A program made the position numbers and the translations under genes. A stretch of 64,000 nucleotides of DNA from Amphiscolops sp. MND2022. Lineage: Eukaryota. This document shows, one piece after another, positions 1,810-62,597 of the stretch (position 1 is its first letter; every line of letters starts with the position of its first letter). Under the pieces are notes generated by a model, which searched no databases, had not been told where the DNA came from, and saw nothing but the letters and a program-made list of their open reading frames with translations. Location of the stretch: the NCBI GenBank assembly GCA_964187785.1, contig OZ076409.1:72604001-72668000 (forward strand). Reading direction: 5' to 3'.

Positions 1810-3779
1810 GTGCGGGGGGAAACCCCATCCCTTATCTTGGAGGATTCGGGTAGGGTCCTGAATCCGAGTTCAGTGCCGCCAGCTCTCAGTAGAAATCTGG
1901 GAAATTTTTTGCGATCTCGTGATCTAACCATAGGATTTTAAAGTTGGAGCGGCCCCCACCAGATTTTCCAAAGTTATTCGCCCCCCACCGGGTTCCAGCG
2001 TGATTGAAATATTTTGTCGGGGTACACGGGCGACCGTTAGGGGTCATTTTAGGGGTAAAATTTATATCCGGTCGCATAACTTTTTTCCTGTTGGTTTAAA
2101 ACTTTGGGACCCTGCTAAAAGTTTCTTGACCGTGTTGCGGTGGCTCCGGAGGTCCGAACCAAATTTTTCTATCTTGAAGCTATCTCCAAGTACCCCCCCG
2201 CCCAAACCGTTATTTTTCCGGAAACGCCGGTTTTTGACCCGGAAGGAGTCGTCTGAGCGCGGGGTCGTTAGGTGATGTTTTGGGGACGGCCTCGAGACGA
2301 AGCGGGGGATATATAGTTTGCCGACCCCAGTTTACCCCCCGCACGGGAAATGACCGTTATATGAGCGGGAAAAATGCCCCCCTCCACGTTTTACCGCTAT
2401 TTCCGGTGTGAAGGAGTGGGAGTAGCGCGTCGGGTGCCATATATCAAAAGTAGGTTTAGACAAGGATCTATCGGAAACATGTGGTTTGGGACCCCCTGGA
2501 CCAACCCGTTAGCAGGAAATGGGGCTTCCGGCCCGTTTTTTTACGGTTAAAAACGGAAAATGGGCATTGAGGGGTAAATATCTCGTGAACGCGTGGAGCT
2601 ACGGTGTCCTTCACTACTACAAGGTTTCATACCCATGATATGGTGCCTTCAGGGGGGCAAACAGATTTCCGCTATCTATCACCGTTACGGACTTGGCCCC
2701 CCAGCCTAACCGCTAAGTGACCGGAAATGTCACTTTTTGAGCCCAAAGGGTCGGTCCCAGCCAGGGAACGTTAGGTAACTTATTGTAGTACTCATTGAGA
2801 CGAGTTGGGGGACATAGTTTCAGTCACCCCCCGTTACCCCTTGGGACCGGAAATGACCGTTATGTGAGTAAATTTGCCATTTTTGTCCTATTTGAAGGGC
2901 ATTTAGATGCGGAAGGAGTGGTAATAGGTGCTTGGACACTATATGAGGTAAGGGAGGACGTGAGGCGAGCATTCGGACATAACCGTTATGTTGACCCTAA
3001 AGTCCCCCTGGTACCGTAAACGACCGGAAATGGTCAAATTTTGTGGCTATTGGGTACAAATGTTTGGTATTTTGTAAATAAAAGTATCTATTAGGTGTTT
3101 CGACGGTTTGCAGTAGTGAACATAGTCATGAAACCTTGTGGGGGGTAACGGTATATAGCACCGGAATTCCGAACCGTTGGAGACAGGATAGGTTTTTTGG
3201 TTTTAAAATGTCTTTCGGCGTACTTTTGTCGACTATTATGGACTATTTTTAAAAATTAAAGTTTTTCCATATAGTTTCAGAGACTCCGAAACCTCAACCA
3301 ACATAACCGTTACCTTATGATAGCCTTTCAAGTTGGCCTGGTGTCAACTTGGAAGGGCTATCCTTCAAAAATCGTTAATCAAGTGTGTTTTTGGGTATGT
3401 TTTTATCATTTTAGAATCAATTAAAGCTCCAAGAAAAGTTTGCCAACGACAAAAACTATGTCGTGATGATTCCGTTATTAGAATGATGGTTAACAAAATG
3501 TTGATAAAGTTGATTTTTTACATTTCAAATGTGTCCTAAAAGCCAGAAAACCTCTTTACCAAAAAAATGGTATTGATTGAATTGTATATAACAGGTAATA
3601 AAAGTTCAAATTGATTATTACGTTTCATTATTCAAGCTAAAACTTCATAACAAAGTTTAATTAACGTCAACGCCACACACTTTACATCAACGCCCACCGT
3701 CTGTGGGCATGCCGAGGCATGCCCTTCGACGACGTATACCAAATACATACCCAAACGACGCCCGTACATCCCGGGCTAG
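1810..3779 (+). mobile_element. U1, family A short cassette (1970 bp)
   Basis: Head GTGCGGGGGGAAACCCC; GC-richer body; ends with core, ACCAAATACATACCC module and CTAG. Confidence 0.6.
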
Positions 3780-5319
3780 GTGGGCGGGGGTAATTCCCCA
3801 ACAAAAATTACGGCCGGCGGGTTGGGTCCTGCCGGACGTCAAATAGCAAAGAATATCTAGTAGGAAACGGCGACACAGAATCGCGATTTTTAAATCTAAC
3901 CACAATTTTTTGGACTTGGAGTGCATGCGGCCCTGAAATGCCCATACGAATCGAAGTTCCTGCTGACGTTAAGCGATTGAAATAATATATAAAAAGTTAT
4001 GGCCCATTTTTCACTCACATAGAAGGGTAAAATGAGGAAATTTTTAACAAAGTCGCTGATAACTCAAAATGTGTTAATTTTTGGACATTGACTGTGAAAC
4101 AAGCTTGGAACCTTCATTTCGTGGCTGTGGCATTGCACTGAACACAAAAGATGTAAAGTTTTTACATTTTTTGAAAATTCGACATTTCTGAAATTTTTTT
4201 CACTACTATCAGTACCCCATATGTCAAAAACGCTTCAGAAAAAATTTTTTATTTGCTTTAAATTGGAAACCTTGGTATCCATGGTTTCTGTCGGAACCTA
4301 CTCGCAGCCAAACACTCAACAGTTTGCATCCAATGTGAAAATAAAATTTTTTTCGGGGTCATAAGCGTTTCACAAGGATTTCTCAACTTAGTATTATTTT
4401 ACAAAATGGTCATTTTGAACACAATATTTTCATCGAGGCTTGTCGGCTATAGCCTTAATGTTCTAGAACGGTCCCACTGGCAACGTAGGAACCATTTATA
4501 GTAATGGAAAGTAATAAAAAAATATTTTCACCCGGTCTTCAGTCATTTTTCAGTCATTCGGAACTTAACTTAGAAAAATTTCGACCAAAATACCCATTTT
4601 TTGTCAGGTCGAAAATTCAAATTCAGATTTTTAAGCAAAATTATTAACTCTGACGTAACCCATGGGGCCCATAATACTCAAAACAACGATTGACACTGGT
4701 ATCAATGGCTTCAATAACATATGAGTCGCGATAAGACGTTATTTTGAGCATTACGTCTCAATTGAGGTAAAGATCTCGCAAGCCAGTGATCACAGTGAAA
4801 TGTGATTTCATCAAAAATTTACTCTTTTTTGTCAATCATTATGTGCACAGAATGCGTAGGGTGCGTTTCAGCACTATAATGAGGTTTTTCAAGGCATCGA
4901 GTTGCTCAAGGGGTGGTATGAGACATTTTTGTCCCATATACTACTGTATTTTCCAAAATTTTTAGCCCAATATCTGGAAATACAAACTTGACAAAATACT
5001 TTCAACTACTTTATTCAAAGGTTACAATATAGATGAACACTGTGGTTGATCAGAAACTTTCATCTCTTTCGTTTTCGGAAATATTTCCCTTCGCATGTGT
5101 TACATTCATAGCAGAAAAAAAAATCGAAACTGAAAAATACGCTATTTTGCTAATATAGAATCGCAATGATTGTGCCTAAAAACTCTTTAAACACTTCTAA
5201 CGCAACCTTACGCACCCAAAATGATCAATAATGCTATTCACAATGGTGACATGTGCTCTTTCTACGATCCTGGCTGGACAAGGTTTGCATATTTTTCAAG
5301 TACCTGTCAGCTAAATCTT

Positions 5320-5367
5320 GTGATAGCCTTTTCAGTTGGCCTTGTGTCAACTTGGGAAGGCTATCAC
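5320..5367 (+). other. Conserved internal ~45-nt stem-loop of short units (representative; family A copy at 1349-1392)
   Basis: GTGATAGCCTT..AGTTGGC-CTTGT-GTCAACT..AAGGCTATCAC inverted repeat, ~400 bp before CTAG in A and B units. Confidence 0.85.
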
Positions 5368-5725
5368 ATCAAAAAACCATCAACAAAAATAATTTTTGTT
5401 TATTGGATCTTACAGTCGATACTTTTTTTCGTGATTCTATACTACCGTTAGTATATTTCCTCAGGTCACCTTACGATTGCATTCAGTCTTTGATAAAAAC
5501 CTATGAACTCAAAGTCACATTTATATATTTTTTTGCCAAAAAAACATCAAAAATATCCAAAAAATATAAAATAGAGTCTTTAGCATTTTTACGTTTCAAG
5601 TTTCCGCCGTTATTAGGCCAATCAACGTCCTACAGCCACGCTCTCTGTCATACTGTACAACGCCACATAGTGTTGCGACGCTCACGGTCTGTGGGCATGC
5701 CGAGGCATGCCCTTCGACGACGTAT

Positions 5726-5764
5726 GCCGAATACCGCGGGCCTACGCCCGCGCTCCCCGGCTAG
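5726..5764 (+). other. Helitron-like 3' terminus: GC hairpin CGCGGGC-CTAC-GCCCGCG, 8 nt, CTAG (representative of 13 copies)
   Basis: An 18-nt hairpin ending 12 nt before the end of CTAG matches the canonical Helitron hairpin + CTRR geometry. Confidence 0.65.
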
Positions 5765-7757
5765 GTGCGGGGGGGAAACCCCATCCCTTATCTTGGAGGA
5801 TTCGGGTAGGGTCCTGAATCCGAGTTCAGTGCCGCCAGCTCTCAGTAGAAATCTGGGCATTTTTTTGCGATCTCGTGATCTAACCATAGGATTTTAAAGT
5901 TGGAGCGGCCCCCACCAGATTTTCCAAAGTTATTCGCCCCCCACCGGGTTCCAGCGTGATTGAAATATTTTGACGGGGTACACGGGCGACCGTTAGGGGT
6001 CATTTTGGGGGTAAAATTTATATCCGGTCGCATAACTTTTTTCCTGTTGGATTAAAACTTTGGGACCCTGCTAAAAGTTTCTTGACCGTGTTGCGGGGGC
6101 TCCGGAGGTCCAAACCAAATTTTTCTATCTTGAAGCTATCTCCAAGTACCCCCCCGCCCAAACCGTTATTTTTCCGGAAACGCAGGTTTTTGACCCGGAA
6201 GGAGTCGTCTGAGCGCGGGGTCGTTAGGTGATGTATTGGGGACGGCCTTGAGACGAAGCGGGGGATATATAGTTTGCCGACCCCAGTTTACCCCCCGGAC
6301 GGGAAATGACCGTTATATGAGCGGGAAAAATGCCCCCCTCCACGTTTTACCGCTATTTCCGGTGTGAAGGAGTGGGAGTAGCGCTTCGGGTGCCATATAT
6401 CAAAAATAAGTTTAGACAAGGACCTATCGGAAACATGTAGTTTGGGACCCCCTGGACCAACCCGTTAGCGGGAAATGGGGCTTCCGCCTCCTTTTTTTAC
6501 TGCTAAAACCGTAAAATGGGCATTGAGGGGTAAATATCTCGTGAACGCGTGGAGCAATCGTGTCCATCACTACTACAAGGTTTCATACCCATGATATGGT
6601 GCCTTCAGGGGGGCAAACAGATTTCCGCTATCTATCACCGTTACCGACTTGGCCCCCCAGCCTAACCGCTATGTGACCGGAAATGTCACTTTTTGAGCCC
6701 AAAGGGTCGGTCCCAGCCGGGGAACGTTAGGTAACTTATTGTAGTACTCAATGAGACGAGTTGGGGGATATAGTTTCAGTCAACCCCCGTTACCCCTTGG
6801 GACCGGAAATGACCGTTATGTGGGTAAATTTGCAATTTTTATACTCTTTGAAGTGTATTTAGGTGCGGAAGGAGTGGTAATAGGTGCTTGGACACTATAT
6901 GATGTAATGGAGGTCGTGAGGAGAGCATTCGGAAATAACCGTTATGTTGACCCCAAAGTCCCCCTGGTACCGTTAACGACCGGAAATGGCCAAATTTTGT
7001 GTCTATTGGGTACAAATGTTTGGTATTTTATGGATAAAAGTACCTGGAAGGTGTTTTAAAGGCCTCCAGAAGTGAACATAGTCATGAAACCTTGTGGGGG
7101 GTAACGGTATATAGCATCGGAAGTCCAAACCGTTGGTCACAGAATAGGTTTTTTGGTTTCAATATGTCTTTAGGCATAGTTTTGTGGGTTGAATCGTCAT
7201 AATATCAACTAATACGGACTTTTTTCGGAAATAAAATTTTTTCACATTAGTTTCAGGGACCTCCAATGCTTCAGTCAAAATAACCGTTACATTTTGATAG
7301 CCTTTCAAGTTGACCTGGTGTCAACTTGGAAGGGCTATCCTTCTAAAATCGTTAATCAACAGTGTTTTTGGGTAGGTATATGTTGCATTAGTACCAATTA
7401 GAGCTTCATCAACAGTTTGCCAACGGCAAAAACGATGTCGTGATAATTCCGTTATAAAAATATTAGTTAACAAATTGTTTTCAAAGTTGATTTTTTCCAT
7501 TAAAAATGTGTCCTAATGCCACCAAATTGAATAAAATAATAAATGGTATTGACTAAAACTAAATAACAATGAAAAAGAAGATCAACATTTTTATTAGGTC
7601 TCATTATGGAAGCAGAAACCTCACGTTTTAACTTAATTAACGTCAACGCCACATACTTTACATCAACGCCCACCGTCTGTGGGCATGCCGAGGCATGCCC
7701 TTCGACGACGTATACCAAACAACCTCCATATCTACACCCACCCGCGGTAGCAGCTAG
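5765..7757 (+). mobile_element. U3, family A short cassette with divergent 3' part (1993 bp)
   Basis: Near-identical to U1 until ~7045, then more diverged; different terminal module. Confidence 0.6.
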
Positions 7758-9741
7758 GTGGGCGGGGGTAATTCCCCAACAAAAATTACGGCCGGCGGGT
7801 TGGGTCCTGCCGGACGTCAAATAGCAAAGAATATCTAGTAGGAAACGGCGACACAGAATCGCGATTTTTAAATCTAACCACAATTTTTTGGACTTGGAGT
7901 GCATGCGGTCCTGAAATGCCCATACGAATCGAAGTTCCTGCTGACGTTAAGCGATTGAAATAATATATAAAAAGTTATGGCCCATTTTTCACTCACATAG
8001 AAGGGTAAAATGAGGAAATTTTTAACAAAGTCGTTGATAACTCAAAATGTGTTAATTTTTGGACATTGACTGTGAAACAAGCTTGGAACCTTCATTTCGT
8101 GGCTGTGGCATTGCACTGAACACAAAACATGTAAAGTTTTTACATTTTTGAAAATTCGACATTTTTGAAATTTTTTTCACTACTATCAGTACCCTATATG
8201 TCAAAAACGCCTCAGAAAATAATTTTTATTTGCTTTAAATTGGAAACCTTGGTATCCATGGTTTCTGTCGGAACCTACTCGCAGCCAAACACCCAACAGT
8301 TTGCATCCAATGTGAAATAAAAAATTTTTTCGAGGTCATAAGCGTTTCACAAGGATTTCTCAACTTAGTTTCAATTTACAAATTGGTCATATTGAACACA
8401 ATATTTTCATCGAAGCTTGTCAGATACCGCCCTAATGCTCACTAATGGGCCTACTCGCAACGTTGGAACCGTTTATAGTAATAGAAAGTTTAAAAAAAAT
8501 ATTTTCACCCGGTCTTCAGTCATTTTTCAGTCATTCGGAACTTTACTTAGAAAAATTTCGACCAAAATACCCATTTTTTGTCAGGTCGAAAAATCAAATT
8601 CACATTTTTAAGCAAAATTATTAACTCTGACGTAACCCATGGGGCCCATAATACTCAAAACAACGATTGACACTGGTATCAATGGCTCCAATAACATATG
8701 AGTCGCGATAAGACGTTATTTTGAGCAATACGTCTCAATTGAGGTAAAGATCTCGCAATCCAGCGATCACTGTGAAATGTGATTTCATCAAAAATTTACT
8801 CATTTTTGTCAATCACTATGTGCAGAGAATGCGTAGGGTGCGTTTCAGCACTATAATGAGGTTTTTGAAGGCATCGAGTTGCTCAAGGGGTGGTATGAGA
8901 CATTTTTGTCCCATATACTACTGTATTTTCCAAATTTTTTAGCCCAATATCTGGAAATACAAATTTGACAAAATACTTTCAACTACTTTATTCAGAGGTT
9001 ACAATATAGATGAACACTGTGGTTGATCAGAAACTTTCATCTCTTTCGTTTTCCGAAATAATTTCCTTCATATGTGTTACATTTGTAGCAGAAAAAAAAA
9101 TCGATACTGAAAAATACGCTATTTTGCTAATATAGAATCGCAATGATTGTGCCTAAAAACTCTTTAAACACTTCTAACGCAACCTTACGCACCCAAAATG
9201 ATCGAAAATGCTATTCACAATGGTGACATGTGCTCTTTCAACGATCCTGACTGAACAATTTTCGCAAATTATTCAAGTACCTGTTAACTGAATCTCGTGA
9301 TAGCCTTTTAAGTTGGCCTTGTGTCAACTTGGGAAGGCTATCACATCAAAAAATTTGCAACAAAAATACATTTTGTTTATTGGAAATGACAGTCGATGTA
9401 TAATTTTGTGATTCTATACTACCGTTAGTACCTTCCATTAAGTCACCTGACGATTGCATTCAGTCTTTGATAAATACCAATGAACTCGAAGTCATATTTA
9501 TAAATTTTGTGCTAAAAATAAACATAAAAATTATCCAAATTATTTAAAATTGAGTCTTTACCGTTTTTGTTTTTCTTTTTCTACTGTTATTAGGCCCATC
9601 AACTTCCTACAGCCACGCTCTCTGTCATACCGTACAACGCCACATAGTGTTGCGACGTGCACAGTCTGTGGGCATGCCGAGGCATGCCCTTCGACGACGT
9701 ATGCCGAATACCGCGGGCCTACGCCCGCGCTCCCCGGCTAG
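7758..9741 (+). mobile_element. U4, family B short cassette (1984 bp, head B1)
   Basis: Bounded by CTAG|GTG junctions; homologous to U2. Confidence 0.6.
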
Positions 9742-11725
9742 GTGGGCGGGGGTAATTCCCCAACAAAAATTACGGCCGGCGGGTTGGGTCCTGCCGGACG
9801 TCAAATAGCAAAGAATATCTAGTAGGAAACGGCGACACAGAATCGCGATTTTTAAATCTAACCACAATTTTTTGGACTTGGAGTGCATGCGGCCCTGAAA
9901 TGTCCATACGAATCGAAGTTCCTGCTGACGTTAAGCGATTGAAATAATATATAAAAAGTTATGGCCCATTTTTCACTCACATAGAAGGGTAAAATGAGGA
10001 AATTTTTAACAAAGTCGCTGATAACTCAAAATGTGTTAATTTTTGGACATTGACTGTGAAACAAGCTTGGAACCTTCATTTCGTGGCGGTGGCATTGCAC
10101 TAAACACAAAAGATGTAAAGTTTTTACATTTTTTGAAAATTCGACTTTTTTGAAATTTTTTTCACTACTATCAGTACCCCATATGTCAAAAACGCCTCAG
10201 AAAAAAATTTTTATTTGCTTTAAATTGGAAACCTTGGTATTCATGGTTTCTGTCGGAACCTACTCGCAGCCAAACACCCAACAGTTTGCATCCAAAGTGA
10301 AAATAAAATTTTTTTCGGGGTCATAAGCGTTTCACAAGGATTTCTCAACTTAGTATTAATTTACAAAATGGTCATTTTGAACACAATATTTTCATCGAGG
10401 CATGTCGGCTATAGTCCTATTGCTCACGAACGGTCCTACTGGCAACGTAATAACCATTTATAGAAATGTAAAGTTATAAAAAAAATTTTTCACCCGGTCT
10501 TCAGTCATTTTTCAGTCATTCGGAACTTAACTTAGAAAAATTTCGACCAAAATATCCATTTTTTGTCAGGTCGAAAAATCAAATTCAGATTTTTAAGCAA
10601 AATTATTAACTCTGACGTAACCCATGGGGCCCATGATACTCAAAACAACGATTGACACTGGTATCAATGGCTCCAATAACATATGAGTCGCGATAAGACG
10701 TTATTTTGAGCATTACGTCTCAATTGAGGTAAAGATCTCGCAAGCCAGCGATCACTGTGAAATGTGATTTCATCAAAAATTTACTCTTTTTTGTCAATCA
10801 CTATGTGCACAGAATGCGTAGGGTGCGTTTCAGCACTATAATGAGGTTTTTGAAGGCATCGAGTTGCTCAAGGGGTGGTATGAGACATATTTGTCCCATA
10901 TACTACTGTATTTTCCAAAATTTTTAACCCAATATCTGGAAATACCAACTTGACAAAATACTTTCAACTACTTTATTCAAAGGTTACAATATGGATGAAC
11001 ACTGTGGTTGATCAGAAACTTTCATCTCTTTCGTTTTCCGAAATATTTCCTTTCGCATGTGTTACATTCGTAGCAGAAAAAAAAATCGAAACTGAAAAAT
11101 ACGCAATTTTGCTAATATAGAATCGCAATGATTGTGCCTAAAAACTCTTTAAACACTTCTAACGCAACCTTACGCACCCAAAATGATCGAAAATGCTATT
11201 CACAATGGTGACATGTGCTCTTTCTACGATCCTGGCTGGACAAGGTTTGCATATTTTTCAAGTACCTGTCAGCTAAATCTTGTGATAGCCTTTTCAGTTG
11301 GCCTTGTGTCAACTTGGGAAGGCTATCACATCAAAAAACCATCAACGAAAATAATTTTTGTCTATTGGATCTTACAGTCGATACTTTTTTTCGTGATTTT
11401 ATACTACCGTTAGTATATTTCATCAGGTCACCTTACGATTGCATTCAGTCTTTGATAAAAACCTATGAACTCAAAGTCACATTTATATATTTTTTTGCCA
11501 AAAAAAACATCCAAAATATCTAAAATATATAAAATAGAATCATTAACATTTTTACAGTTCAAGTTTCTGCCGTTATTAGGCCAATCAACGTCCTAGAGCC
11601 ACATCCTGTCATACTGTACAACGCCACAAAGTGTTGCGACGTGCACAGTCTGTGGGCATGCCGAGGCATGCCCTTCGACGACGTATGCCGAATACCGCGG
11701 GCCTACGCCCGCGCTCCCCGGCTAG
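9742..11725 (+). mobile_element. U5, family B short cassette (1984 bp, head B1)
   Basis: Bounded by CTAG|GTG junctions; homologous to U2. Confidence 0.6.
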
Positions 11726-13708
11726 GTGGGCGGGGGTAATTCCCCAACAAAAATTACGGCCGGCGGGTTGGGTCCTGCCGGACGTCAAATAGCAAAGAAT
11801 ATCTAGTAGGAAACGGCGACACAGAATCGCGATTTTTAAATCTAACCACAATTTTTTGGACTTGGAGTGCATGCGGCCCTGAAATGCCCATACGAATCGA
11901 AGTTCCTGCTGACGTTAAGCGATTGAAATAATATATAAAAAGTTATGGCCCATTTTTGGGTCACCGAGAAGGGCAAAATGAGGAAAATTTTAACTAAGTC
12001 GCTGATAACTCAAAATGTGTTAATTTTTGGACATTGACTGTGAAACAAGCTTGGAACCTTCATTTCGTGGCTGTGGCATTGGACTGAACACAAAAGATGT
12101 AAAGTTTTTACATTTTTTGAAAATTCGACATTTTTGATTTTTTTTTCACTAGTATCAGCACCCCATATGTCAAAAACGCCTCAGAAAAAAATTTTTATTT
12201 GCTTTAAATTGGAAACCTTGGTATCCATGGTTTCTGTCGGAACCTACTCGCAGCCAAACACCCAACAGTTTGCATCCAATGTGAAAATAAAAATTTTTTC
12301 TGGGTCATAAGCGTTTCACAAGGATTTCTCAACTTAGTATTAATTTACAAAATGGTCATTTTGAACACAATATTTTCATCGAGGCTTGTCGGCTATAGCC
12401 TTAATGTTCTAGAACGGTCCCACTGGCAACGTAGGAACCATTTATAGTAATGGAAAGTAATAAAAAAATATTTTCACCCGGTCTTCAGTCATTTTTCAGA
12501 CATTCGGAACTTATCTTAGAAAAATTTCGTCTCAAACACCCATTTTTTGACAGGTCGAAAAATCAAATTAGGATTTTTAAGCACAATTATTAACTCTGAC
12601 GTAACCCTTGGGGCCCATGATACTCAAAACAACGATTGACACTGTTATCAATGGCTCCAATAACATATGAGTCGCGATAAGACGTTATTTTGAGCAATAC
12701 GTCTCAATTGAGGTAAACATCTCGCAAGCCTGGGATCACAGTGGAATGTAAATTCATCAAAAGTTTACTCATTTTTGTCAATCACTATGTGCACAGAGTG
12801 CGTAGGGTGAGTTCCAGCACTATAATGAGGTTTTTGAAGGCATCGGGTTGCTCAAGGGGTGGTATGAGACATTTTTTTTCTATATACTACTGTATTTTCC
12901 AAAATGTTTAGCCCATTATCTGGAAAAACTAACTTGACAAAATACTTTCAATGATTTTATTCAAAGGCTACAATGTAGATGAACCCAGTGGTTGATCAGA
13001 AACTTTCATCTCTTTCGTTTTCCGAAATATTTCCCTTCGCATGTGTTACATTTGTAGCAGAAAAAAAATCGAAACTGAAAAATACGATATTTTGCTAATA
13101 TAGAATCGCAATGATTGTGTCTAAAAACTCTTTAAACACTTCTAACGCGACCTTACGCACCCAAAATGATCAAAAATGCTATTCACAATGGTGACATGTG
13201 CTCTTTCAACGATCCTGACTGAACAATTTTCGCAAATTATTCAAGTACCTGTTAACTGAATCTCGTGATAGCCTTTTAAGTTGGCCTTGTGTCAACTTGG
13301 GAAGGCTATCACATCAAAAAATTTTCAACAAAAATACTTTTTGTTTATTGGAAATGACAGTCGATATATAATTTCGTGATTCTATACTACCGTTAGTACC
13401 TTCCATTAAGTCACCTGACGATTGCTTTCAGTCTTTGATAAATACCTATGAACTCGAAGTCTTATTTATAAATTTTGTGCTAAAAATAAACATCAAAACT
13501 ATCCAAATTATTTAAAATTGAGTCTTTACCGTTTTTGTTTTTCTTTTTCTACTGTTATTAGGCTCATCAACTTCCCACAGCCACGCTCTCTGTCATTAGT
13601 ACAACGCCACATAGTGTTGCGACGTGCACGGTCTGTGGGCATGCCGAGGCATGCCCTTCGACGACGTATGCCGAATGCACTGCGGCGACGCCCGCAGTCC
13701 AAGGCTAG
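11726..13708 (+). mobile_element. U6, family B short cassette (1983 bp) with a unique terminal module
   Basis: Body nearly identical to U8; ends ACTGCGG-CGACGC-CCGCAGT-CCAAGG-CTAG. Confidence 0.6.
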
Positions 13709-14520
13709 GTGGGGGGGATATATCTCCACTTTTTTTGCGACCGCGGGTAGGGTCCTGTCGGGAGCTTCTATTTACCAAGCTTACGGCGCTATATACTAGA
13801 GAAAATTTTTCCGGCACCGAACTTTTTTTTGAACCATAGGATTTGTACCATTTTTTGCATGCGGCCCTAATTTGGGCATACAAGACGAAGTTCCTGCTGA
13901 CGTTAAGCGATGGTTTCATTGTGTAACGAGATATAGCCACTTTTTGGTGCGAATTTTGAGGTATTTTTGAGAAAAATTTTACAAACAGCTCGAATGCAAA
14001 AAATTGAAAAACTTGTGACAATCGACCTATCACTGGTTTAAACCTTCGATTCTTTGCCCTAGCAATGCACTAGACCCAAAAGATCTAAAACTTTTACATT
14101 TTCCAAAAATTTGACCAAATTGACTCGGGTTTCACTACTATATGTAACCAATGTGACAAAAACACCTCAGAAAAAAATTTTTATTTGCTTAAATTTAGAA
14201 ACCTTGGTATCCATGGTTTCTGTCGGAACCTACTCGCAGCCAAACACTCAACAGTTTGCATCCAATGTGAATTTAAATTTTTTTTCGAGGTCATAGGTGT
14301 TTCACAAGGATTTCACAACTTAGTTTCATATTACAAATTGGTCATTTTCAACATCATATTTCCATCGAGGCATGTCGGATAGAGTGTTATTGCTTACGAA
14401 CGGTCCTACTGGCAACGTGTTAACCATTTATAGAAATACAAAGTTATAAAAAAATTTTTTCACCCGTTCTTCCATCATTTTTCAGACATTCGGAACTTAT
14501 CTTAGAAAAATTTCGTCTCA

Positions 14521-15700
14521 AAAACCCATTTTTTGTCAGGTCGAAAACTCAAATTCAGCTTTTTAAGCACAATTATTAACTCTGACGTAACCAGTGGGGC
14601 CCATGATACTCAAAACAACGATTGGGGTTGGTACCATTGGCTCAAATAACATATGAGTCGCGATAAGACGTTATTTTTAGCCATACGTCTCAATTGAGGT
14701 AAACATCTCGCAAGCCAGGGATCTCTGTGAAATGTGATTTCATCAAAAAGTTACCCATTTTCGCCAATTACTATGTGCACAGAGTGCGTAGGGTGAGTTT
14801 CAGCACTATAATGAGGTTTTTGAAGGATTCGGGTTGCTCAAAGGGTGGTATGAGACATTTTTTTCCCATATACTACTGTATTTTCCAAAAATTTTAGCCC
14901 ATTATCTGGAAAAACTAACTTGACAAAATACTTTCAGTTACTCTATTCGAAGCTTAGAATATAGATGAACACTGTGGTTGATCAGAAACTATTAACTATT
15001 TTGTTTTTAGAAAAAAACTGCCTTGCATGTGTTACATTAGTGGCAGGAAAAATACCAGTAGCTCCAAAAATCAAAAATTTGGACGGACAGACTTCCAATG
15101 ATGCAAAACAAAAACGTTTCAACAACTTCTGACGCCACTTTTTTTACCCAAGAGGTTCGAAAACACCATTAACAATGCTGACATTCGCAATAAATAAGAT
15201 CGAGGTCTATTTACTAACACTTAGGTTTTAAATTTTTTTCTCGGAAACCCATTATTGTCAGGTCGCAAATTCAAATTTGGTTTTGGAAGCAATACTTTTC
15301 ACTCTGAAGCAAACCGTTGGGCCCAAAATACTCAACAACAACAAAAAGACTATCACCATATGCTCTAATAACATATGAGATGCGACTGTATGTTTTTAAC
15401 ACAATAACTCTCATTCTGAAGTAAACATGTTGAAAGCCTTGAATCACAGTGAGAAGTGATTTCATCAAAAACTATTTCTTTTTCGTCAATCACTAAATAC
15501 ACAGAACCCGTTGTGTTAGTTTCAGTAGTGAAATGAGGTTCTACCGTAATATCGGTTGCTCAAGGTGTTGTATAAGGCAAAAACTTCCTCTTTTCTACTA
15601 ACTTCTTCAAATATTTCAACCCTTTGTCACACGAAGTTAATATTCAAAATCTCTTTGAATTGTTTCTTAAGGTTGTGGTGAATTGTTAGAACAATTACTA
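14521..15700 (+). repeat. Old ~722-bp-period direct duplication inside long cassette U7 (also present in U11, U12 and U19)
   Basis: CCCATTTTTTGTCAGGTCG (~14525) recurs as CCCATTATTGTCAGGTCG (~15248); GTGATTTCATCAAAAA at ~14734 and ~15456; GGTTGCTCAA at ~14832 and ~15554. Confidence 0.85.
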
Positions 15701-24442: not shown

Positions 24443-27400
24443 GTGGGCGGGGGTAATTCCCCAACAAAAAAATCGGCCGGCGGGTCGGGTCCTGCCGGCC
24501 GTCCAAAATCAAAATCCTCCTAGTAGAAAACGGCATGTCAAACGAGCTATTTTTTTATTTAACCATTAGAATTTCACCATTTTTTGCATGCGGCCCTGAA
24601 ATGGCCATACGAGACGAAGTTCCTGCTGACGTTTTGCGATGTAAATGTTTTATAAAAAGTTATGGCCGATTTGTCATTCACCTAGAAGGGTAAAATGAGG
24701 AAAATTTTAACAAAGTCGCTGATAACTCAAAATGTGTTAATTTTTGGACTTTGACTGTGAAACAAGCTTGGAACCTTCATTTCGTGGCTGTGGCATTGCA
24801 CTGAACGCAAAAGATGTAAAGTTTTTACATTTTTTGAAAATTTGACATTTTTGAAATTTCTTTCACTACTATCAGTATCATATATGTCAAAAACACCTCA
24901 GAAAAAAAATTTTATTTGCTTTAACTTGGAAACCTTGGTATCCATGGTTTCTGTCGGAACCTACTTGCAACCAAACAACCAACAGTTTGCATCCAATGTG
25001 AAAATAAAAACTTTTTCTGGGTCATAAGCGTTTCACAAGGATTTCTCAACTTAGTATTAATTTACAAAATGGTCATTTTGAACACAATATTTTCATCGAG
25101 GCTTGTCGGCTATAGCCTTAATGTTCTAGAACGGTCCCACTGGCAACGTAGGAACCATTTATAGTAATAGAAAGTTTAAAAAAATATATTTTCACCCTGT
25201 CTTCAGTCATTTTTCAGTCATTCGGAACTTAACTTAGAAAAATTTCGACCAAAATACCCATTTTTTGACAGATCGAAAATTCAAATTCAACTTTTTAAGC
25301 AAAATTATTAACTCTGACGTAACCAGTGGGGCTCATGATACTCAAAAACACGATTGGGACTGGTACCAATGGCTCCAATATCATATGAGCCGCGATAAGA
25401 CGTTATTTTGAGCAATACGTCTCAATTGAGGGAAACATCTCGCAAGCCTGGGATCACAGTTAAAAGTGATTTCGTCAAAAATTTACTCTTTTTCGTCTAT
25501 CACTATGTACACAGAGTGCGTAGGGTGAGTTTCAGCACTATAATGCGGTTTTTGAAGGAATCGGTCTGCTCAAGGGGTGGTATGAGACATTTTTTTTTGC
25601 ATGTAGTACTATATTTCCTAAAACTTTTAGCCCATTATCTCGAAAAGCTCACTTCGCAAATTACTTTCAGTTACTCTATTCGAAGCTTAGAATATATATG
25701 AACACTGTGGTTGATCAGAAACTCTTGACTATTTTGTTTTTGGAAAAAAACTGCCTTGCATGTGTTACATTAGTGGCAGGAAAAATACCAGTAGCTCCAA
25801 AAATCACAATTTTGGACGGACAGACCTGCAATGATGCAAAGCAAAAACGTTTCAACAACTTCTGGCGCCACTTTTTTTACCCAAGAGGTTCGAAATTACT
25901 ATTAACAATGCTGACATTCGCTATATATAAGATCGAGGACAATTTACTAACACTTAGGTTATACATTTATATCTGAGAAACCATTCTTTGTCAGGTCGCA
26001 ATTTTAAATTTAGTTTGGGAAGCAATACTTTTCACTCTGAAGCAAACCGTTGGGCCCAAATTACTCAAAAACTACAAAAAGACTGTCACCAAATGCCCTA
26101 ATAGCATATGAGATTCGACCGTATGTTTTTAACACAAAAACTCTCATCCGAAGTAAACATGTTGAAAGCCTTGAATCACCGTGAGAAATGATTTCATCAA
26201 AAATATCCCTTTTTCGTCAATCTTTATCTACACAGAACACGTTGTGTCATTTTCAGCCGTGAAATGAGCTTCTACCGTAATATGGGTTGCTCAAGGTGTT
26301 GTATAAGACAAAAACTTCCTCTTTTCTACTATCTTCTTCAAATATTTCAACCCTTTGTCACAAGAAGTTAATATTCAAAATCTCTTTGAAATGTTTCTTT
26401 AGGTTGGTGTGAAGTGTTAGAACAATAATTAAGATCGAAGAATGATAGTATTGGTGTTTGGACCATGTCCGGATGAACAAATTGCAAAATCATGAAAAAT
26501 TTCTTACCATTTTTGGTCATTTTGTCAGTACTAAAAATGTTAGCTGAAAAAGAATTTTTTTGATGGCACCATTGGATTCCTCTCAAAAAGTTAGCTATAT
26601 GAACTGTGTAATAACCCCGTATCTTTTCAATTTAAATAATTTTAAAAAGCAAACTTTTTTGACTAAAATCCTAAAAATCATACCATTTCCTAAAAAATTT
26701 CAAATGCCCCCCATTCGACGTATAAGAATAGCACAGAAAACTATCACATACCGATCGACTCTACTTCCATTGTAGATTACCAGAATTTTGTTTAGAACAA
26801 TTTTTGACGGATGCAAAAAAATTTAAACCCTCCAAAAAAGGGCCAAAATTACACGAAAAAATTGACCTTAAAATTTTAAAATGTCGAAAAATCATCAAAA
26901 CCACAGCTTCTTGGGGTTCTATCAACTCCACGTGGTCCACAGAGTATGTTAAAACAAGTTTTACCCGTATTTGAGCAATATGTGAAAAAGCCGACTTTTT
27001 TGGGAATGAAAAACATACCATTTCCTAAAAAATTTCAAACGCACCCCATTTGACGTATAAGAATAGCACAGAAAACTATCACATACCGATCGACTCTACT
27101 TCCATTGTAGGTTACCAGAATCTTGTTTAGAACATTTGTTGACGGATGCAAAAAAAAATAAAACCCTCCAAAAATGGGCCAAAATTACACGAAAAAATTG
27201 ACCTTAAATTTTTAAAATGTCAAAAAATCATCAAAACCACAGCTTCTTGGGGTTCTATCAACTCCACGTGGTCCACAGAGTATGCTAAAACAGGTTTTAC
27301 CTGTTTCTGAGCTATATGTGAAAAAACCGACATTTTGGGGAAGAAAAACATACCATTTCCTAAAAAATTTCAAATTCACGCCATTTGCCGTATGAGAATA

Positions 27401-29205
27401 GCACAGAAAACTATCACATACCGATCAACTCTACTTCTATTGTAGATTATCAGATTTTTGTTTAGAACAAATTTTTATGGATATAAAAAATTTTTAAACC
27501 CTCCAAAAATGAGCCAAAATAACACGAAAAAATGGACCCTAAATTTTTAAAATGTCAAAAAATTATCCAAACCACAGCTTCTTGGGGTTCTATCAGCTCC
27601 ACGTGGTCCACAGAGTATGCTAAAACAGGTTTTGCCCGTTTTTGAGCAGTATATGAAAAAGCCGACATTTTTGGGGAAGAAAAACATACCATTTCCTAAA
27701 TAATTTCAAATGCAGGCAATTTGCCGTATGAGAGTAGCACAGAAAACTATCACACACCGATCAACTCTACTTCTTTTGTAGATTATCAGAATTATGTTTA
27801 GAGTAAAGTTTTATGGATATGAAAAATTTTTATACCCTCCAAAAATGGGCCAAAATGACACGAAAAAATTGACCTCAAATTTTTAAAATGTCAAAAAATT
27901 ATCCAAACCACAGCGTCTTGGCGTTCTATCAACTCCAAATGACCTTCAGAGTATACCAAACCAGGTATTGCCAATCTTTTGAGCAATATTTAAAAACACC
28001 GACTATTTGGCAAGAACACCATAATATGTTCCATATAAGAAGTGAATCATTCCACATATATACCCGGTCTAATATTTTCAAATTAGCGATAACATTAATA
28101 CATGATGTTTTTTGAAAGTGAGCTTCATAAGAGGTTGAGATGTAATAATACGTAAATGGACCCTAAGTTTCATTGAAATCTCAATGGAATACGTCCAATC
28201 AACTTCAATCCTAACTATTATATAACAAGAAACACTTGAGTACATTCCATCTCCCCATCGGGGGAGATGAGAATGTACTTTTCAAAAGCCAAAATTTTCG
28301 AATTTTAAATCTTTTGTAACATTGTATGTAACTGTTGAAACGATGAACGAATAAAAATGCTTCTAGTACCTTCATCAATTTTTGCTTCAGCTCCTATTTC
28401 TGCAGAACAAAACCAAAAGACACACTTACAGCAGTTAAGTTCGATTGTATAACTCAGTGAATAAAGGTATGACTGAGGAAGTTCACAAGTTGTTTCAAAA
28501 GTTTCCGGCCTTCCAAAATCATGAAACGTCCACACAACCAAGATAGCAAGTGAAAGAATGCTGAATGCACCTTATTAGATGAGATAAATAACGTGTGGAA
28601 CTTGCCATTATCTTAAGATGACGTTGATTTATGATCTTTTAAGGATAGTTCGATATGTGACCACAATAGTGGAAAACTTATTACTATTTGAAGAACACCG
28701 TGGAAAGCGTTCAGAAAGGACAGTATATTTGTTTCGAGCATGCATGCGTGTGTTCCTTTGGTGACGTTAGCTTAGTGTACATGACGGAGGTATTCGAGAG
28801 ATTATGATAGAGTTTACTCACAAGTCTTTGTTTTTTAAAACTTTCTATGCCGTTGAGTACATTCGTAAGGTACATCCATCCCCTTCTCTGGGAATGTACG
28901 TTTGCCAAATGACTGTCATCCAAAATTCGTAATCCGGACGAGTTTAACTACATAAACATGTGATGAGCGTTTTCTATTCAAAACCGAATAACTTTTTTTT
29001 TCTCGAAAATGATGATGGTTTTGATTTTGATGTCTTCTACTTTTATCATCATGCAAACGACCTTACCATGTCTCTCTTCTGTCGTCATTTGTACAACGCC
29101 ACATAGCGTTCCGACGCCCACCGTCTGTGGGCATGCCGAGGCATGCCCTTCGACGACGTATGCCAAATGAGCCATACCCGCACTCTGGAGTGCGGTAGCG
29201 GCTAG
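24443..29205 (+). mobile_element. U11, long cassette (4763 bp)
   Basis: Head B3; four ~336-bp repeats; essentially identical to U19. Confidence 0.6.
26679..28019 (+). repeat. Internal tandem repeat, 4 x ~336 bp (U11)
   Basis: Copies start at 26679, 27014, 27349 and 27685. Confidence 0.95.
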
Positions 29206-45901: not shown

Positions 45902-48900
45902 GTGGGCGGGGGTAATTCCCCAACAAAAAAATCGGCCGGCGGGTCGGGTCCTGCCGGCCGTCCAAAATCAAAATCCTCCTAGTAGAAAACGGCATGTCAA
46001 ACGAGCTATTTTTTTATTTAACCATTAGAATTTCACCATTTTTTGCATGCGGCCCTGAAATGGCCATACGAGACGAAGTTCCTGCTGACGTTTTGCGATG
46101 TAAATGTTTTATAAAAAGTTATGGCCGATTTGTCATTCACCTAGAAGGGTAAAATGAGGAAAATTTTAACAAAGTCGCTGATAACTCAAAATGTGTTAAT
46201 TTTTGGACTTTGACTGTGAAACAAGCTTGGAACCTTCATTTCGTGGCTGTGGCATTGCACTGAACGCAAAAGATGTAAAGTTTTTACATTTTTTGAAAAT
46301 TTGACATTTTTGAAATTTCTTTCACTACTATCAGTATCATATATGTCAAAAACACCTCAGAAAAAAAATTTTATTTGCTTTAACTTGGAAACCTTGGTAT
46401 CCATGGTTTCTGTCGGAACCTACTCGCAACCAAACAACCAACAGTTTGCATCCAATGTGAAAATAAAAACTTTTTCTGGGTCATAAGCGTTTCACAAGGA
46501 TTTCTCAACTTAGTATTAATTTACAAAATGGTCATTTTGAACACAATATTTTCATCGAGGCTTGTCGGCTATAGCCTTAATGTTCTAGAACGGTCCCACT
46601 GGCAACGTAGGAACCATTTATAGTAATAGAAAGTTTAAAAAAATATATTTTCACCCTGTCTTCAGTCATTTTTCAGTCATTCGGAACTTAACTTAGAAAA
46701 ATTTCGACCAAAATACCCATTTTTTGACAGATCGAAAATTCAAATTCAACTTTTTAAGCAAAATTATTAACTCTGACGTAACCAGTGGGGCTCATGATAC
46801 TCAAAAACACGATTGGGACTGGTACCAATGGCTCCAATATCATATGAGCCGCGATAAGACGTTATTTTGAGCAATACGTCTCAATTGAGGGAAACATCTC
46901 GCAAGCCTGGGATCACAGTTAAAAGTGATTTCGTCAAAAATTTACTCTTTTTCGTCTATCACTATGTACACAGAGTGCGTAGGGTGAGTTTCAGCACTAT
47001 AATGCGGTTTTTGAAGGAATCGGTCTGCTCAAGGGGTGGTATGAGACATTTTTTTTTGCATGTAGTACTATATTTCCTAAAACTTTTAGCCCATTATCTC
47101 GAAAAGCTCACTTCGCAAATTACTTTCAGTTACTCTATTCGAAGCTTAGAATATATATGAACACTGTGGTTGATCAGAAACTCTTGACTATTTTGTTTTT
47201 GGAAAAAAACTGCCTTGCATGTGTTACATTAGTGGCAGGAAAAATACCAGTAGCTCCAAAAATCACAATTTTGGACGGACAGACCTGCAATGATGCAAAG
47301 CAAAAACGTTTCAACAACTTCTGGCGCCACTTTTTTTACCCAAGAGGTTCGAAATTACTATTAACAATGCTGACATTCGCTATATATAAGATCGAGGACA
47401 ATTTACTAACACTTAGGTTATACATTTATATCTGAGAAACCATTCTTTGTCAGGTCGCAATTTTAAATTTAGTTTGGGAAGCAATACTTTTCACTCTGAA
47501 GCAAACCGTTGGGCCCAAATTACTCAAAAACTACAAAAAGACTGTCACCAAATGCCCTAATAGCATATGAGATTCGACCGTATGTTTTTAACACAAAAAC
47601 TCTCATCCGAAGTAAACATGTTGAAAGCCTTGAATCACCGTGAGAAATGATTTCATCAAAAATATCCCTTTTTCGTCAATCTTTATCTACACAGAACACG
47701 TTGTGTCATTTTCAGCCGTGAAATGAGCTTCTACCGTAATATGGGTTGCTCAAGGTGTTGTATAAGACAAAAACTTCCTCTTTTCTACTATCTTCTTCAA
47801 ATATTTCAACCCTTTGTCACAAGAAGTTAATATTCAAAATCTCTTTGAAATGTTTCTTTAGGTTGGTGTGAAGTGTTAGAACAATAATTAAGATCGAAGA
47901 ATGATAGTATTGGTGTTTGGACCATGTCCGGATGAACAAATTGCAAAATCATGAAAAATTTCTTACCATTTTTGGTCATTTTGTCAGTACTAAAAATGTT
48001 AGCTGAAAAAGAATTTTTTTGATGGCACCATTGGATTCCTCTCAAAAAGTTAGCTATATGAACTGTGTAATAACCCCGTATCTTTTCAATTTAAATAATT
48101 TTAAAAAGCAAACTTTTTTGACTAAAATCCTAAAAATCATACCATTTCCTAAAAAATTTCAAATGCCCCCCATTCGACGTATAAGAATAGCACAGAAAAC
48201 TATCACATACCGATCGACTCTACTTCCATTGTAGATTACCAGAATTTTGTTTAGAACAATTTTTGACGGATGCAAAAAAATTTAAACCCTCCAAAAAAGG
48301 GCCAAAATTACACGAAAAAATTGACCTTAAAATTTTAAAATGTCGAAAAATCATCAAAACCACAGCTTCTTGGGGTTCTATCAACTCCACGTGGTCCACA
48401 GAGTATGTTAAAACAAGTTTTACCCGTATTTGAGCAATATGTGAAAAAGCCGACTTTTTTGGGAATGAAAAACATACCATTTCCTAAAAAATTTCAAACG
48501 CACCCCATTTGACGTATAAGAATAGCACAGAAAACTATCACATACCGATCGACTCTACTTCCATTGTAGGTTACCAGAATCTTGTTTAGAACATTTGTTG
48601 ACGGATGCAAAAAAAAATAAAACCCTCCAAAAATGGGCCAAAATTACACGAAAAAATTGACCTTAAATTTTTAAAATGTCAAAAAATCATCAAAACCACA
48701 GCTTCTTGGGGTTCTATCAACTCCACGTGGTCCACAGAGTATGCTAAAACAGGTTTTACCTGTTTCTGAGCTATATGTGAAAAAACCGACATTTTGGGGA
48801 AGAAAAACATACCATTTCCTAAAAAATTTCAAATGCACGCCATTTGCCGTATGAGAATAGCACAGAAAACTATCACATACCGATCAACTCTACTTCTATT

Positions 48901-50664
48901 GTAGATTATCAGATTTTTGTTTAGAACAAATTTTTATGGATATAAAAAATTTTTAAACCCTCCAAAAATGAGCCAAAATAACACGAAAAAATGGACCCTA
49001 AATTTTTAAAATGTCAAAAAATTATCCAAACCACAGCTTCTTGGGGTTCTATCAGCTCCACGTGGTCCACAGAGTATGCTAAAACAGGTTTTGCCCGTTT
49101 TTGAGCAGTATATGAAAAAGCCGACATTTTTGGGGAAGAAAAACATACCATTTCCTAAATAATTTCAAATGCAGGCAATTTGCCGTATGAGAGTAGCACA
49201 GAAAACTATCACACACCGATCAACTCTACTTCTTTTGTAGATTATCAGAATTATGTTTAGAGTAAAGTTTTATGGATATGAAAAATTTTTATACCCTCCA
49301 AAAATGGGCCAAAATGACACGAAAAAATTGACCTCAAATTTTTAAAATGTCAAAAAATTATCCAAACCACAGCGTCTTGGCGTTCTATCAACTCCAAATG
49401 ACCTTCAGAGTATACCAAACCAGGTATTGCCAATCTTTTGAGCAATATTTAAAAACACCGACTATTTGGCAAGAACACCATAATATGTTCCATATAAGAA
49501 GTGAATCATTCCACATATATACCCGGTCTAATATTTTCAAATTAGCGATAACATTAATACATGATGTTTTTTGAAAGTGAGCTTCATAAGAGGTTGAGAT
49601 GTAATAATACGTAAATGGACCCTAAGTTTCATTGAAATCTCAATGGAATACGTCCAATCAACTTCAATCCTAACTATTATATAACAAGAAACACTTGAGT
49701 ACATTCCATCTCCCCATCGGGGGAGATGAGAATGTACTTTTCAAAAGCCAAAATTTTCGAATTTTAAATCTTTTGTAACATTGTATGTAACTGTTGAAAC
49801 GATGAACGAATAAAAATGCTTCTAGTACCTTCATCAATTTTTGCTTCAGCTCCTATTTCTGCAGAACAAAACCAAAAGACACACTTACAGCAGTTAAGTT
49901 CGATTGTATAACTCAGTGAATAAAGGTATGACTGAGGAAGTTCACAAGTTGTTTCAAAAGTTTCCGGCCTTCCAAAATCATGAAACGTCCACACAACCAA
50001 GATAGCAAGTGAAAGAATGCTGAATGCACCTTATTAGATGAGATAAATAACGTGTGGAACTTGCCATTATCTTAAGATGACGTTGATTTATGATCTTTTA
50101 AGGATAGTTCGATATGTGACCACAATAGTGGAAAACTTATTACTATTTGAAGAACACCGTGGAAAGCGTTCAGAAAGGACAGTATATTTGTTTCGAGCAT
50201 GCATGCGTGTGTTCCTTTGGTGACGTTAGCTTAGTGTACATGACGGAGGTATTCGAGAGATTATGATAGAGTTTACTCACAAGTCTTTGTTTTTTAAAAC
50301 TTTCTATGCCGTTGAGTACATTCGTAAGGTACATCCATCCCCTTCTCTGGGAATGTACGTTTGCCAAATGACTGTCATCCAAAATTCGTAATCCGGACGA
50401 GTTTAACTACATAAACATGTGATGAGCGTTTTCTATTCAAAACCGAATAACTTTTTTTTTCTCGAAAATGATGATGGTTTTGATTTTGATGTCTTCTACT
50501 TTTATCATCATGCAAACGACCTTACCATGTCTCTCTTCTGTCGTCATTTGTACAACGCCACATAGCGTTCCGACGCCCACCGTCTGTGGGCATGCCGAGG
50601 CATGCCCTTCGACGACGTATGCCAAATGAGCCATACCCGCACTCTGGAGTGCGGTAGCGGCTAG
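45902..50664 (+). mobile_element. U19, long cassette (4763 bp), recent copy of U11
   Basis: Colinear with U11 at an offset of 21459 bp; the ORF-track peptides are nearly all identical. Confidence 0.6.
48138..49478 (+). repeat. Internal tandem repeat, 4 x ~336 bp (U19)
   Basis: Same as 26679-28019 shifted by 21459 bp. Confidence 0.95.
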
Positions 50665-60609: not shown

Positions 60610-62597
60610 GTGGGCGGGGGTAATTCCCCAACAAAAATTACGGCCGGCGGGTTGGGTCCTGCCGGACGTTCAAATAGCGCGAAGCATCTAGTAGAAAACA
60701 AGGAGTCCTGAAACAGCGATTTTAAAATTGAACCGTTAGAATTTGGTTTTAGATTGCATGCGGCCCTAAAATCCCCATACGAATGGAAGTTCCTGCTGGC
60801 GTTAAGCGATTGAAATAATATATAAAAAGTTATGGCCCATTTTTGGGTCACCGAGAAGGTCAAAATGAAGAAAATTTTAACTAAGTTGCTGATAACTCAA
60901 AATGTGTTAATTTTTGGACTTTGACTGTGAAACAATCTTGGAACCTTCATTTCGTGGCTGTGGCATTGCACTGAACACAAAAGATGTAAAGTTTTCACAT
61001 TTTTTGAAAATTCGACATTTTTGAATTTTTTTCACTACTATCAGTACACTATATGTCAAAAACACCTCTGAAAAATTTTTTTATTTGCTTAAATTTAGAA
61101 ACCTCGGTATCCATGGTTTCCGTCAGTACCTACTCGCTGCCAAACACTCAACAGTTTGCATCCAATGTGAAAATAAATTTTTTTTCGAGGTCTTAGGTGT
61201 TTCACAAGGATTTCTCAACTTAGTATCAATTTACAAATTGGTCATTTTGAACACATTATTTTCATCGAAGCGTGTCATATACCGCCCTAATGCTCACGAA
61301 CGGGCCTACTGGCAACGTTGGAACCAGTTATAGTAATAAAAAGTTTTAAAAATTTTTTTTCACCCCGTCTTCAGTCATTTTACACACTTTCGGAACTTAA
61401 CTTAGAAAAATTTCAACCAAAAACCCATTTTTTGTCAAGTCGAAAATTCAAATTCAGCTTTTTAAGCAAAATAAATAAATCTGACATAACCAGTGGGGCC
61501 CATGAAACTCAAAACCACGATTGAGACTGGTATCAATGGCTCCAATAACATATGAGTCGCGATAAGACGCTATTTTGAGCAAAACATCTCAATTGGGGTA
61601 AAGATCTCGCAAGCCAGCGATCACTGTGAAATGTGATTTCATCAAAAATTTACTCTTTTTTGTCAATCACTATGTGCACAGAATGCGTAGGGTGCGTTTC
61701 AGCACTATAATGAGGTTTTTGAAGGCATCGAGTTGCTCAAGGGGTGGTATGAGACATTTTTGTCCCATATACTACTGTAGTTTCCAAAATTTTTACCCCA
61801 ATATCTGGAAATACAAACTTGACAAAATACTTTCAACTACTTTATTCAAAGGTTACAATATAGATGAACACTGTGGTTGATAAGAAACTTTCATCTCTTT
61901 CGTTTTCGGAAATATTTCCGTTCGCATGTGTTACATTCATAGCAGAAAAAAAAATCGAAACTGAAAAATACGCTATTTTGCTGATATAGAATCGCAATGA
62001 TTGTGCCTAAAAACTCTTTAAACACTTCTAACGCAACCTTACGCACCCAAAATGATCGAAAATGCTTTTCACAATGGTGACATGTGCTCTTTCTACGATC
62101 CTGGCTGGACAAGGTTTGCATATTTTTCAAGTACCTGTCAGCTAAATCTTGTGATAGCCTTTTCAGTTGGCCTTGTGTCAACTTGGGAAGGCTATCACAT
62201 CAAAAAACCATCAACAAAAATAATTTTTGTTTATTGGATCTTACAGTCGATACTTTTTTTCGTGATTCTATACTACCGTTAGTATATTTCATCAGGTCAC
62301 CTTACGATTGCATTCAGTCTTTGATAAAAACCTATGAACTCAAAGTCACATTTATATATTTTTTTGCCAGAAAATAACATCAAAAATATCTAGAATATAT
62401 AAAATAGAGTCTTTAACATTTTTACGTTTCAAGTTTTTGCCGTTATTAGGCCAATCAACGTCCTAGAGCCACATCCTGCCACATACTGTACAACGCCACA
62501 TAGTGTTGCGACGTGCACAGTCTGTGGGCATGCCGAGGCATGCCCTTCGACGACGTATGCCGAATACCGCGGGCCTACGCCCGCGCTCCCCGGCTAG
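60610..62597 (+). mobile_element. U25, family B short cassette, subtype B2 (1988 bp)
   Basis: Near-identical to U9, U16 and U20. Confidence 0.6.

Follow-up and report, generated by a model that had tools for sequence, protein, structure and literature searches.

The question raised by this locus is why non-coding DNA units that have lost nearly all similarity to each other should have kept their lengths almost fixed. The locus is a stretch of 64,000 nucleotides from Amphiscolops sp. MND2022 (contig OZ076409.1 of the assembly GCA_964187785.1, positions 72,604,001 to 72,668,000, forward strand), referred to here as the window, the whole of which is a single array of such units continuing past both window ends. 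The answer favoured here, with a probability of about one half, is that the units form a non-autonomous, non-coding rolling-circle (HUH-nuclease) family in a eukaryotic chromosome, which inserts at its own junctions and in which a nucleosome-type spacing is selected.

The complete units (Table 1) fall into two size classes. The short class (n = 21, 1970–1998 bp) comprises family A (1970 and 1993 bp) and family B (n = 19, 1981–1998 bp, standard deviation 4.9); it thus rests on two families only, 19 of the 21 members being B, a caveat absent from an earlier sequence-only reading of the same DNA. The long class (n = 4) measures 4768, 4763, 4766 and 4763 bp, and since the two copies of 4763 bp differ by 2 bases and by no indel, sequence error can be considered negligible and the distinct long variants number three. 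The partial A unit at the window start implies a full length of ~1971 bp. The B units are mutually 76–99% alike and mosaic, the tracts being a few hundred bases long, whereas A and B are alignable with each other solely at the head (~1–150), the internal hairpin and the tail, their best near-diagonal identity over positions 150–1500 being 26.5%, compared with 25.3% for the background (z 1.6). In the long units, TRF finds 3.8–4.0 copies of a 336-bp repeat per unit, the array segment measuring 1271, 1270 and 1272 bp in the three variants. These results, together with the junction-to-junction lengths, bear out what the sequence-only reading had stated, i.e. 21 short units within a 28-bp range, A and B barely alignable over the body, and three long variants with four internal repeats each. 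It was also observed that u11, u12 and u19 carry the head of u14, u22 and u24, and that parts of the first 1490 bp (24443–25932) are common to particular B units; the size classes therefore appear to exchange sequence.

Concerning the proposal of that reading that length itself is constrained, the answer is a partial one. Over the B core (unit positions 143–1730, 19 units), 670 derived substitution alleles stand against 15 indels, all of 1 bp. The long units exhibit 735 variable columns with 16 indels (15 of 1 bp) over positions 143–3500, and, over positions 3501–4650, 339 variable columns with 22 indels, of which 15 are multi-base, the longest reaching 13 bp; multi-base indels thus do arise in these elements, yet they are kept out of the cores. 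Despite its indels, this 3′ part measures 1152, 1150 and 1149 bp, and sign randomisation in the long class, on n = 3 variants, gives P = 0.03 for the whole unit and P = 0.012 for the 3′ part taken post hoc. The A and B lengths, moreover, match within ~1%, though their cores share no colinear signal and A alone carries an internal duplication. Within-family uniformity simulated under neutrality at the indel load of chicken LINEs, 0.18 indel bp per substitution (a value derived from Table 2 of PMC3342960), has P = 0.003–0.03. Non-neutral length is accordingly partly supported, mostly as a local constraint: selection on internal spacing appears highly probable, and selection on total length is favoured by a modest margin. 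The ratio of the two unit lengths had also been read as 10:24 units of ~198.5 bp; this proved uninformative, since a quantum somewhere between 160 and 240 bp can be fitted to 48% of random length pairs, and the inner spacing is ~167 bp. Likewise, the 1399 bp of L002, a metagenome contig described below, come within 10 bp of 7 × 198.5 bp, but so would 13% of lengths.

In family A, lags of 167, 503 and 669 bp are present, the sub-lags at 165–167 and 669–670 being weak, and its internal duplication is still 50–65% identical. The closest within-unit pairs of 336-bp repeats differ at 14 and 13 positions per 250 bp, versus 20–46 between units (11 of the 12 copies compared); the copies turn over and are homogenised within units, yet they number four in all three variants. 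An AA/TT and WW periodicity of 9.9–10.1 bp (p ≤ 0.02) runs through the A core, the B core and the 336-bp repeats, a nucleosome-like signal that by itself suggests a eukaryotic host, the periodicity of variable sites being not significant. As to mutation in the B core, A<->T changes lead the transversions, with 88 of 311 singletons, and beside runs of the derived base they occur at about twice the expected rate, an excess that may reflect hidden paired slippage.

The units meet at GCTAG|GTG, found 26 times on the plus strand and never on the minus strand of the whole window. CTAG is present at 26/26 junctions, the precise cut lying somewhere within GCTAGGTG, and every junction joins element to element (G|G). 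Near identity was seen to the left of the junction in 7 of the 325 junction pairs and to its right in 27, but no pair showed it on both flanks (rho −0.09); at seven internal control points, by comparison, two-sided matches numbered 4–9 among 171 pairs (at position 1400, for instance, 9 of the 11 pairs that matched on the left also matched on the right). This reassortment at the junction, as against the internal controls, means that single units enter the arrays exactly there, i.e. the units move singly. Adjacent B units differ from each other by 241 positions versus 226 for the others, near-identical pairs being 0 of 14 and 8 of 171, respectively, and neither adjacency nor distance has an effect on unit similarity (rho −0.02). 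Block duplication is thus ruled out as the cause of the unit order by the unlikeness of neighbours and the uncoupled junction sides, and rolling-circle concatemers by the former; nor is the array a classical satellite DNA, in which local amplification makes neighbours the most alike. Five public sequencing runs match the window (shares 0.04–0.21; no RNA run among those listed). In the comparison, covering four runs as contigs only and at low depth, contigs from two runs stop 5–6 nt ahead of the junction, at the common GCTAG (X1 at 3774, X4 at 11721), the pattern predicted for one head preceded, there as well, by several tails. A contig of the latter run, over 5760–6265, represents a further A-type variant, ~10% diverged, with five listed gaps, all of 1 bp.

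Both ends of the units carry structured signals. The head motif CGGGTNGGGTCCTG occurs 26 times at up to 2 mismatches, against 0.37 expected from shuffles, and never away from unit heads; in the head stem, both partners vary in 5 of the 11 pairs, and 0 of 500 shuffles reach the score, a count that is no probability, the structure having been derived from the same sequences. At the other end, the tails outside the main hairpin pattern (Table 1) close 3 nt from the end in two cases and fold weakly in two, and the 3′ hairpin sequence differs among tail types. As for terminal inverted repeats, the 9 units examined had best head–tail matches of 7–9 nt and L002 one of 10 nt, the shuffle mean being ~8. 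The long internal hairpin has a stem of 16–22 bp, its A and B versions being homologous and the long-class version unrelated in sequence. A long hairpin at a similar relative place was observed in four sequence-unrelated versions (5318–5368, 28239–28280, L002 241–280 and L001 1513–1551, L001 being a second metagenome contig); to judge from sequence, it is a candidate second-strand origin or packaging signal.

The rolling-circle family would account for these features as follows, HUH chemistry as such being probable. A Rep- or RepHel-type enzyme, encoded elsewhere, would nick the junction and free a monomer circle, which would be joined to the free CTAG-3′ end left by the nicking of another resident junction, and repeated joining would build mixed arrays of one polarity and random order. 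Purifying selection in the mobile phase would keep length constant, with the register of the nucleosome-positioning core as its main target and total length as a weaker one, and the size classes would consequently jump rarely (1.4, 2.0 and 4.8 kb) and then freeze. In the literature, Helraiser is described with precise CTAG-to-5′ circle junctions that are re-nicked (PMC5876387), and Helitron1 with a hairpin and CTAG at its 3′ ends (PMC5148889, PMC11417382).

Several results weigh against this reading, in addition to the three variants behind the long-class compensation and the common origin of head structure and head covariation. The units begin with GTG where a Helitron1 would have TC, and the junctions show no A|T target. 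Head–tail linkage within units, a prediction for circles, is not significant (Mantel P 0.06–0.21), and singleton mutations are without strand bias (C>T 37 versus G>A 33). Neither a transposase nor a helper virus was found in the window open reading frames (ORFs) and the viral scans, with no protein-family search made. The 10-bp periodicity is absent from positions 1500–2200 of the long units and from L001, and weak in the 3′ part of the former; an integer-nucleosome rule should also permit 3 or 5 repeats, none of which was seen. No length compensation was detected in B or A (P 0.44–1.0 anchor-based, 0.09–0.99 alignment-based). The ratio of singleton to shared indels is not significant either (P = 0.19). 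The same side of the balance holds the fit of neutral inheritance, i.e. a low host indel rate and constant recombination, with A and B descending from one ancestor of this length and their core saturated via length-neutral conversion among ~167-bp modules: at 0.05 indel bp per substitution the simulated ranges agree with the data (P = 0.14 for the long class, 0.85 for B), A and B lack compensation, the short families number only two here, and gene conversion could account for both the homogenised repeats at unchanged copy number and the equal length of A and B. Yet the long units take 15 multi-base indels per 339 variable columns at the 3′ end versus 1 per 735 upstream, the fit is lost at the chicken-LINE load, and the A duplication has remained recognizable while the A–B similarity is gone; the neutral explanation is considered unlikely.

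A size limit could also be imposed by a capsid, if the units were integrated non-coding satellites of an unidentified DNA virus, with circles packaged, capsid capacity setting the sizes and the array serving as chromosomal reservoir. The unrelated cores of equal length, the long-class compensation, the fixed repeat number and the heavy mosaicism all agree with this, as do the origin-like hairpin cluster with a second long hairpin, known from deltasatellites (PMC4756297), the limits on size known for single-stranded DNA (ssDNA) viruses and their release by replication from tandem origins (PMC3187698), and the closing of L002 as a 1399-bp circle. That closure, however, is possibly a collapsed tandem repeat, 8 viral-contig scans gave no true match, the junction is devoid of a TAATATTAC/TAGTATTAC-type nonanucleotide, mutation is not strand-biased, and a capsid leaves the ban on 2–5-bp indels in the core unexplained, making the viral origin doubtful. 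Equally tentative is a wider picture of releasable gene-free circles, with size classes (~1.4, 2.0, 4.8 kb) set by a protein container, which would re-integrate only at each other's origins, possibly under a p53-family switch, as an endogenous self-targeting eukaryotic DNA satellite system between Helitrons and viral satellites. Integrons, IMEX and Cryptons are the comparison families for site-specific recombination cassettes, and tyrosine-recombinase cassettes of such a kind, excised and re-inserted at GCTAGGTG, would shuffle unit-precisely, in one polarity and without target duplication, with structured DNA flanking the 8-bp core on both sides as here; the core nevertheless has no inverted arms, terminal inverted repeats stay at shuffle level, the 3′ end is Helitron-like and no recombinase was found among the window ORFs (no protein-family search), which leaves these cassettes improbable. 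An artefact of library or assembly, with size-selected circles cut at CTAG and concatenated, could produce the random order, a junction including a palindromic 4-mer and an array filling the window, but the uniform head-to-tail polarity of 26/26 junctions and the uncut internal CTAG sites (2 in u02, 4 per long variant), as well as the two sharp sizes and the same breakpoints in independent runs, make it extremely improbable.

Table 1 Features of the window with their coordinates (u, unit; A, B and L, family A, family B and long units)
Feature	Position	Strand	Remarks
Partial family-A unit	1..1809	+	clipped at window start; 8-1819 matches 1979-3789 at 95%
Junction core GCTAG|GTG, first of 26	1805..1812	+	crossover inside these 8 bp
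25 complete non-coding units, head-to-tail	1810..62597	+	
Unit order	1810..62597		A B A B B B L B B B L L B B B B B B L B B B B B B
Family A unit u01	1810..3779	+	1970 bp, 45% GC
Internal duplication in A, 503-bp offset	2118-2365 vs 2621-2868 (span 2118..2868)	+	62.5%; absent from B
B type unit u02	3780..5764	+	1985 bp
Head	3786..3848	+	small G/C hairpin and hairpin with invariant apex CGGGTNGGGTCCTG, covarying lower stem
B core	3922..5509 (unit positions 143-1730)	+	no multi-base indels; AA/TT and WW periodicity ~10.1 bp
Long internal hairpin, short class	5318..5368	+	~400-450 nt before junction; homologous in A (3317-3363)
Near-invariant 36-nt tail motif with GGGCATGCCGAGGCATGCCC	5687..5722	+	20-mer identical in 26/26 tails
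3′ hairpin	5735..5764	+	closes 10-12 nt before unit end in 22/26 tails
Second full A unit	5765-7757	+	1993 bp
Long unit u11	24443..29205	+	4763 bp; B-like 1-1490, 722-offset duplication, 4 x 336 bp, unique 3′ part
Four 336-bp repeats	26645..28023	+	closest copies within one unit in 2/3 variants
Long internal hairpin, long class	28239..28280	+	~920-980 nt before junction in 3/3 variants
Other long units	13709-18476, 29206-33971, 45902-50664	+	
Partial B-type unit	62598..64000	+	clipped at window end

A scan of metagenome contigs with the head pattern yielded 3 matches, one of them due to chance. With a head model built from the window heads alone, on which motif-selected chance matches reach 20 bits on the apex only, L002 scores 38 bits and L001 23.9 bits over full length; L002 can thus be regarded as a firm, and L001 as a probable, relative, and the family is wider than this genome. 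The two contigs share with the window the junction and the head hairpin; both also have the shared CCACT ahead of the junction, as well as a long internal hairpin of unrelated sequence, and they are without long ORFs. L002 exhibits a 10.0-bp periodicity and closes by a 70-nt terminal overlap, which may mean a circle or a collapsed tandem repeat; given its closing at 1399 bp, size is class-specific. L001 is incomplete, with at least 1836 bp, and contains, at 870–1463, three diverged tRNA-like repeats spaced by 219–225 bp, one of them reaching 21.9 bits versus the Rfam tRNA model, below the gathering score.

The invariant 20-mer of the tail (5693–5712 and the 25 other tails) matches the p53 response-element consensus at 19/20 positions, spacer-free, sites at that level being found 0–1 times per 64 kb in shuffles; GGGCATGCCC is given in PMC2807882 as the tightest zebrafish p53 half-site. 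The same 20-mer also folds as a hairpin and is absent from both L001 and L002.

With regard to coding content, no conserved ORF is present in the window under the standard code and three alternative stop readings, a protein-family search not having been run, and variable sites show no codon periodicity. Rfam gave 0 matches at E ≤ 1 in 1–20000, a span that includes A, B and long units, and ARAGORN 0 tRNAs in the window, so that an array of RNA genes (tRNA, 5S, snRNA, ribozyme) is rejected. BLAST against phages and plasmids found no match. The 20-mer had 8 matches in GTDB, none with further similarity, which were read as terminator-like or chance palindromes, and the tail 23-mer had none in the metagenome scan. 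In the 8 scans of viral contig collections, four of them empty, no true relative was found and all 19 loci are chance; among these, L028 and L030 are contigs of levivirus-like RNA phages that carry replicase ORFs, and a further locus is a GC-rich stretch of phage sequence.

It is commonly assumed that a non-autonomous transposon requires just its ends. The units described here would, by contrast, have a non-coding interior in which register, and probably total size as well, is under selection, and they would insert at each other's junctions. If this is true, nature provides in them a clean way of testing if the intermediates of rolling-circle elements become chromatinised or packaged; packaging, in turn, would be relevant to the cross-species transfer of such elements; the conserved head motif may serve as a probe for the missing autonomous element. 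Neither this junction nor mixed arrays of fixed length turned up in the literature searched; subscription journals, supplements and Repbase/Dfam lay outside the search, so a library consensus may already exist.

Comparison with known systems starts from the viral satellites and from replitrons. Deltasatellites and geminivirus satellites (PMC4756297, PMC3187698) resemble the units in being non-coding, size-limited and recombinant, with an origin hairpin and a second hairpin, and the former are a precedent for non-coding size-limited replicons (PMC4756297); they are, however, episomal ssDNA of 633–750 nt with TAATATTAC, whereas the units of the window lie in chromosomal arrays, have nucleosome-phased bodies and lack a known helper, and no TAATATTAC-type loop of the CRESS-satellite nonanucleotide stem-loop was found in the junction alignments. 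Replitrons (PMC10288648) are alike in HUH-type copy-and-paste, in orientation-specific insertion and possibly in a short direct repeat at the ends, as GCTAGGTG is readable as such a common repeat, the window covering the array interior only. They are nevertheless dispersed elements of plants, algae and protists, with fuzzy right ends and, in Chlamydomonas, target duplications, and such ends are not seen here.

Within the Helitrons, as defined for HLE1 and HLE2 in PMC11417382 and PMC5148889, the Helentron/HINE group (HLE2) shares nucleosome-sized modules (167, 336 and 503 bp here) inside a non-coding mobile element, oyster HINEs having 140–180-bp central repeats in variable number (PMC7492417) and Xenopus Heli2Xen 166-bp repeats (PMC12001565). 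The window units differ in lacking subterminal inverted repeats, including the 11–18-nt asymmetric terminal ones, and TT targets at their junctions, in their fixed repeat number and in being arranged head-to-tail, not dispersed. Long arrays of Helitron-like non-coding units are also known from subtelomeric and centromeric regions (Hydractinia, PMC11934779; Meloidogyne, PMC13404089), and tandem Helitrons are also cited for plant centromeres. In Hydractinia (PMC11934779), the units vary broadly in length, contain many indels and spread locally, in contrast to the fixed lengths, few indels and unrelated neighbours seen here. The likeness to Helitron1/HLE1 and Helraiser (PMC11417382, PMC5876387, PMC12001565) covers the 3′ hairpin 10–12 nt from the end (22/26), the CTAG terminus in agreement with the CTRR of HLE1 (26/26), the absence of target duplication, precise CTAG-to-5′ junctions and the occurrence of tandem arrays. 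Helitron1, on the other hand, starts with TC, has TA-rich heads and inserts at A|T, while the window units start with GTG (on the minus strand, the base after CTAG is C), have structured, G/C-rich heads and insert at their own junction, the A|T site being absent from all 26 junctions and the window offering array junctions alone; their arrays, furthermore, mix families in random order at fixed lengths. The units represent a real variant of rolling-circle-like mobile DNA, apparently not described before, which targets its own junctions and whose non-coding interior is selected.

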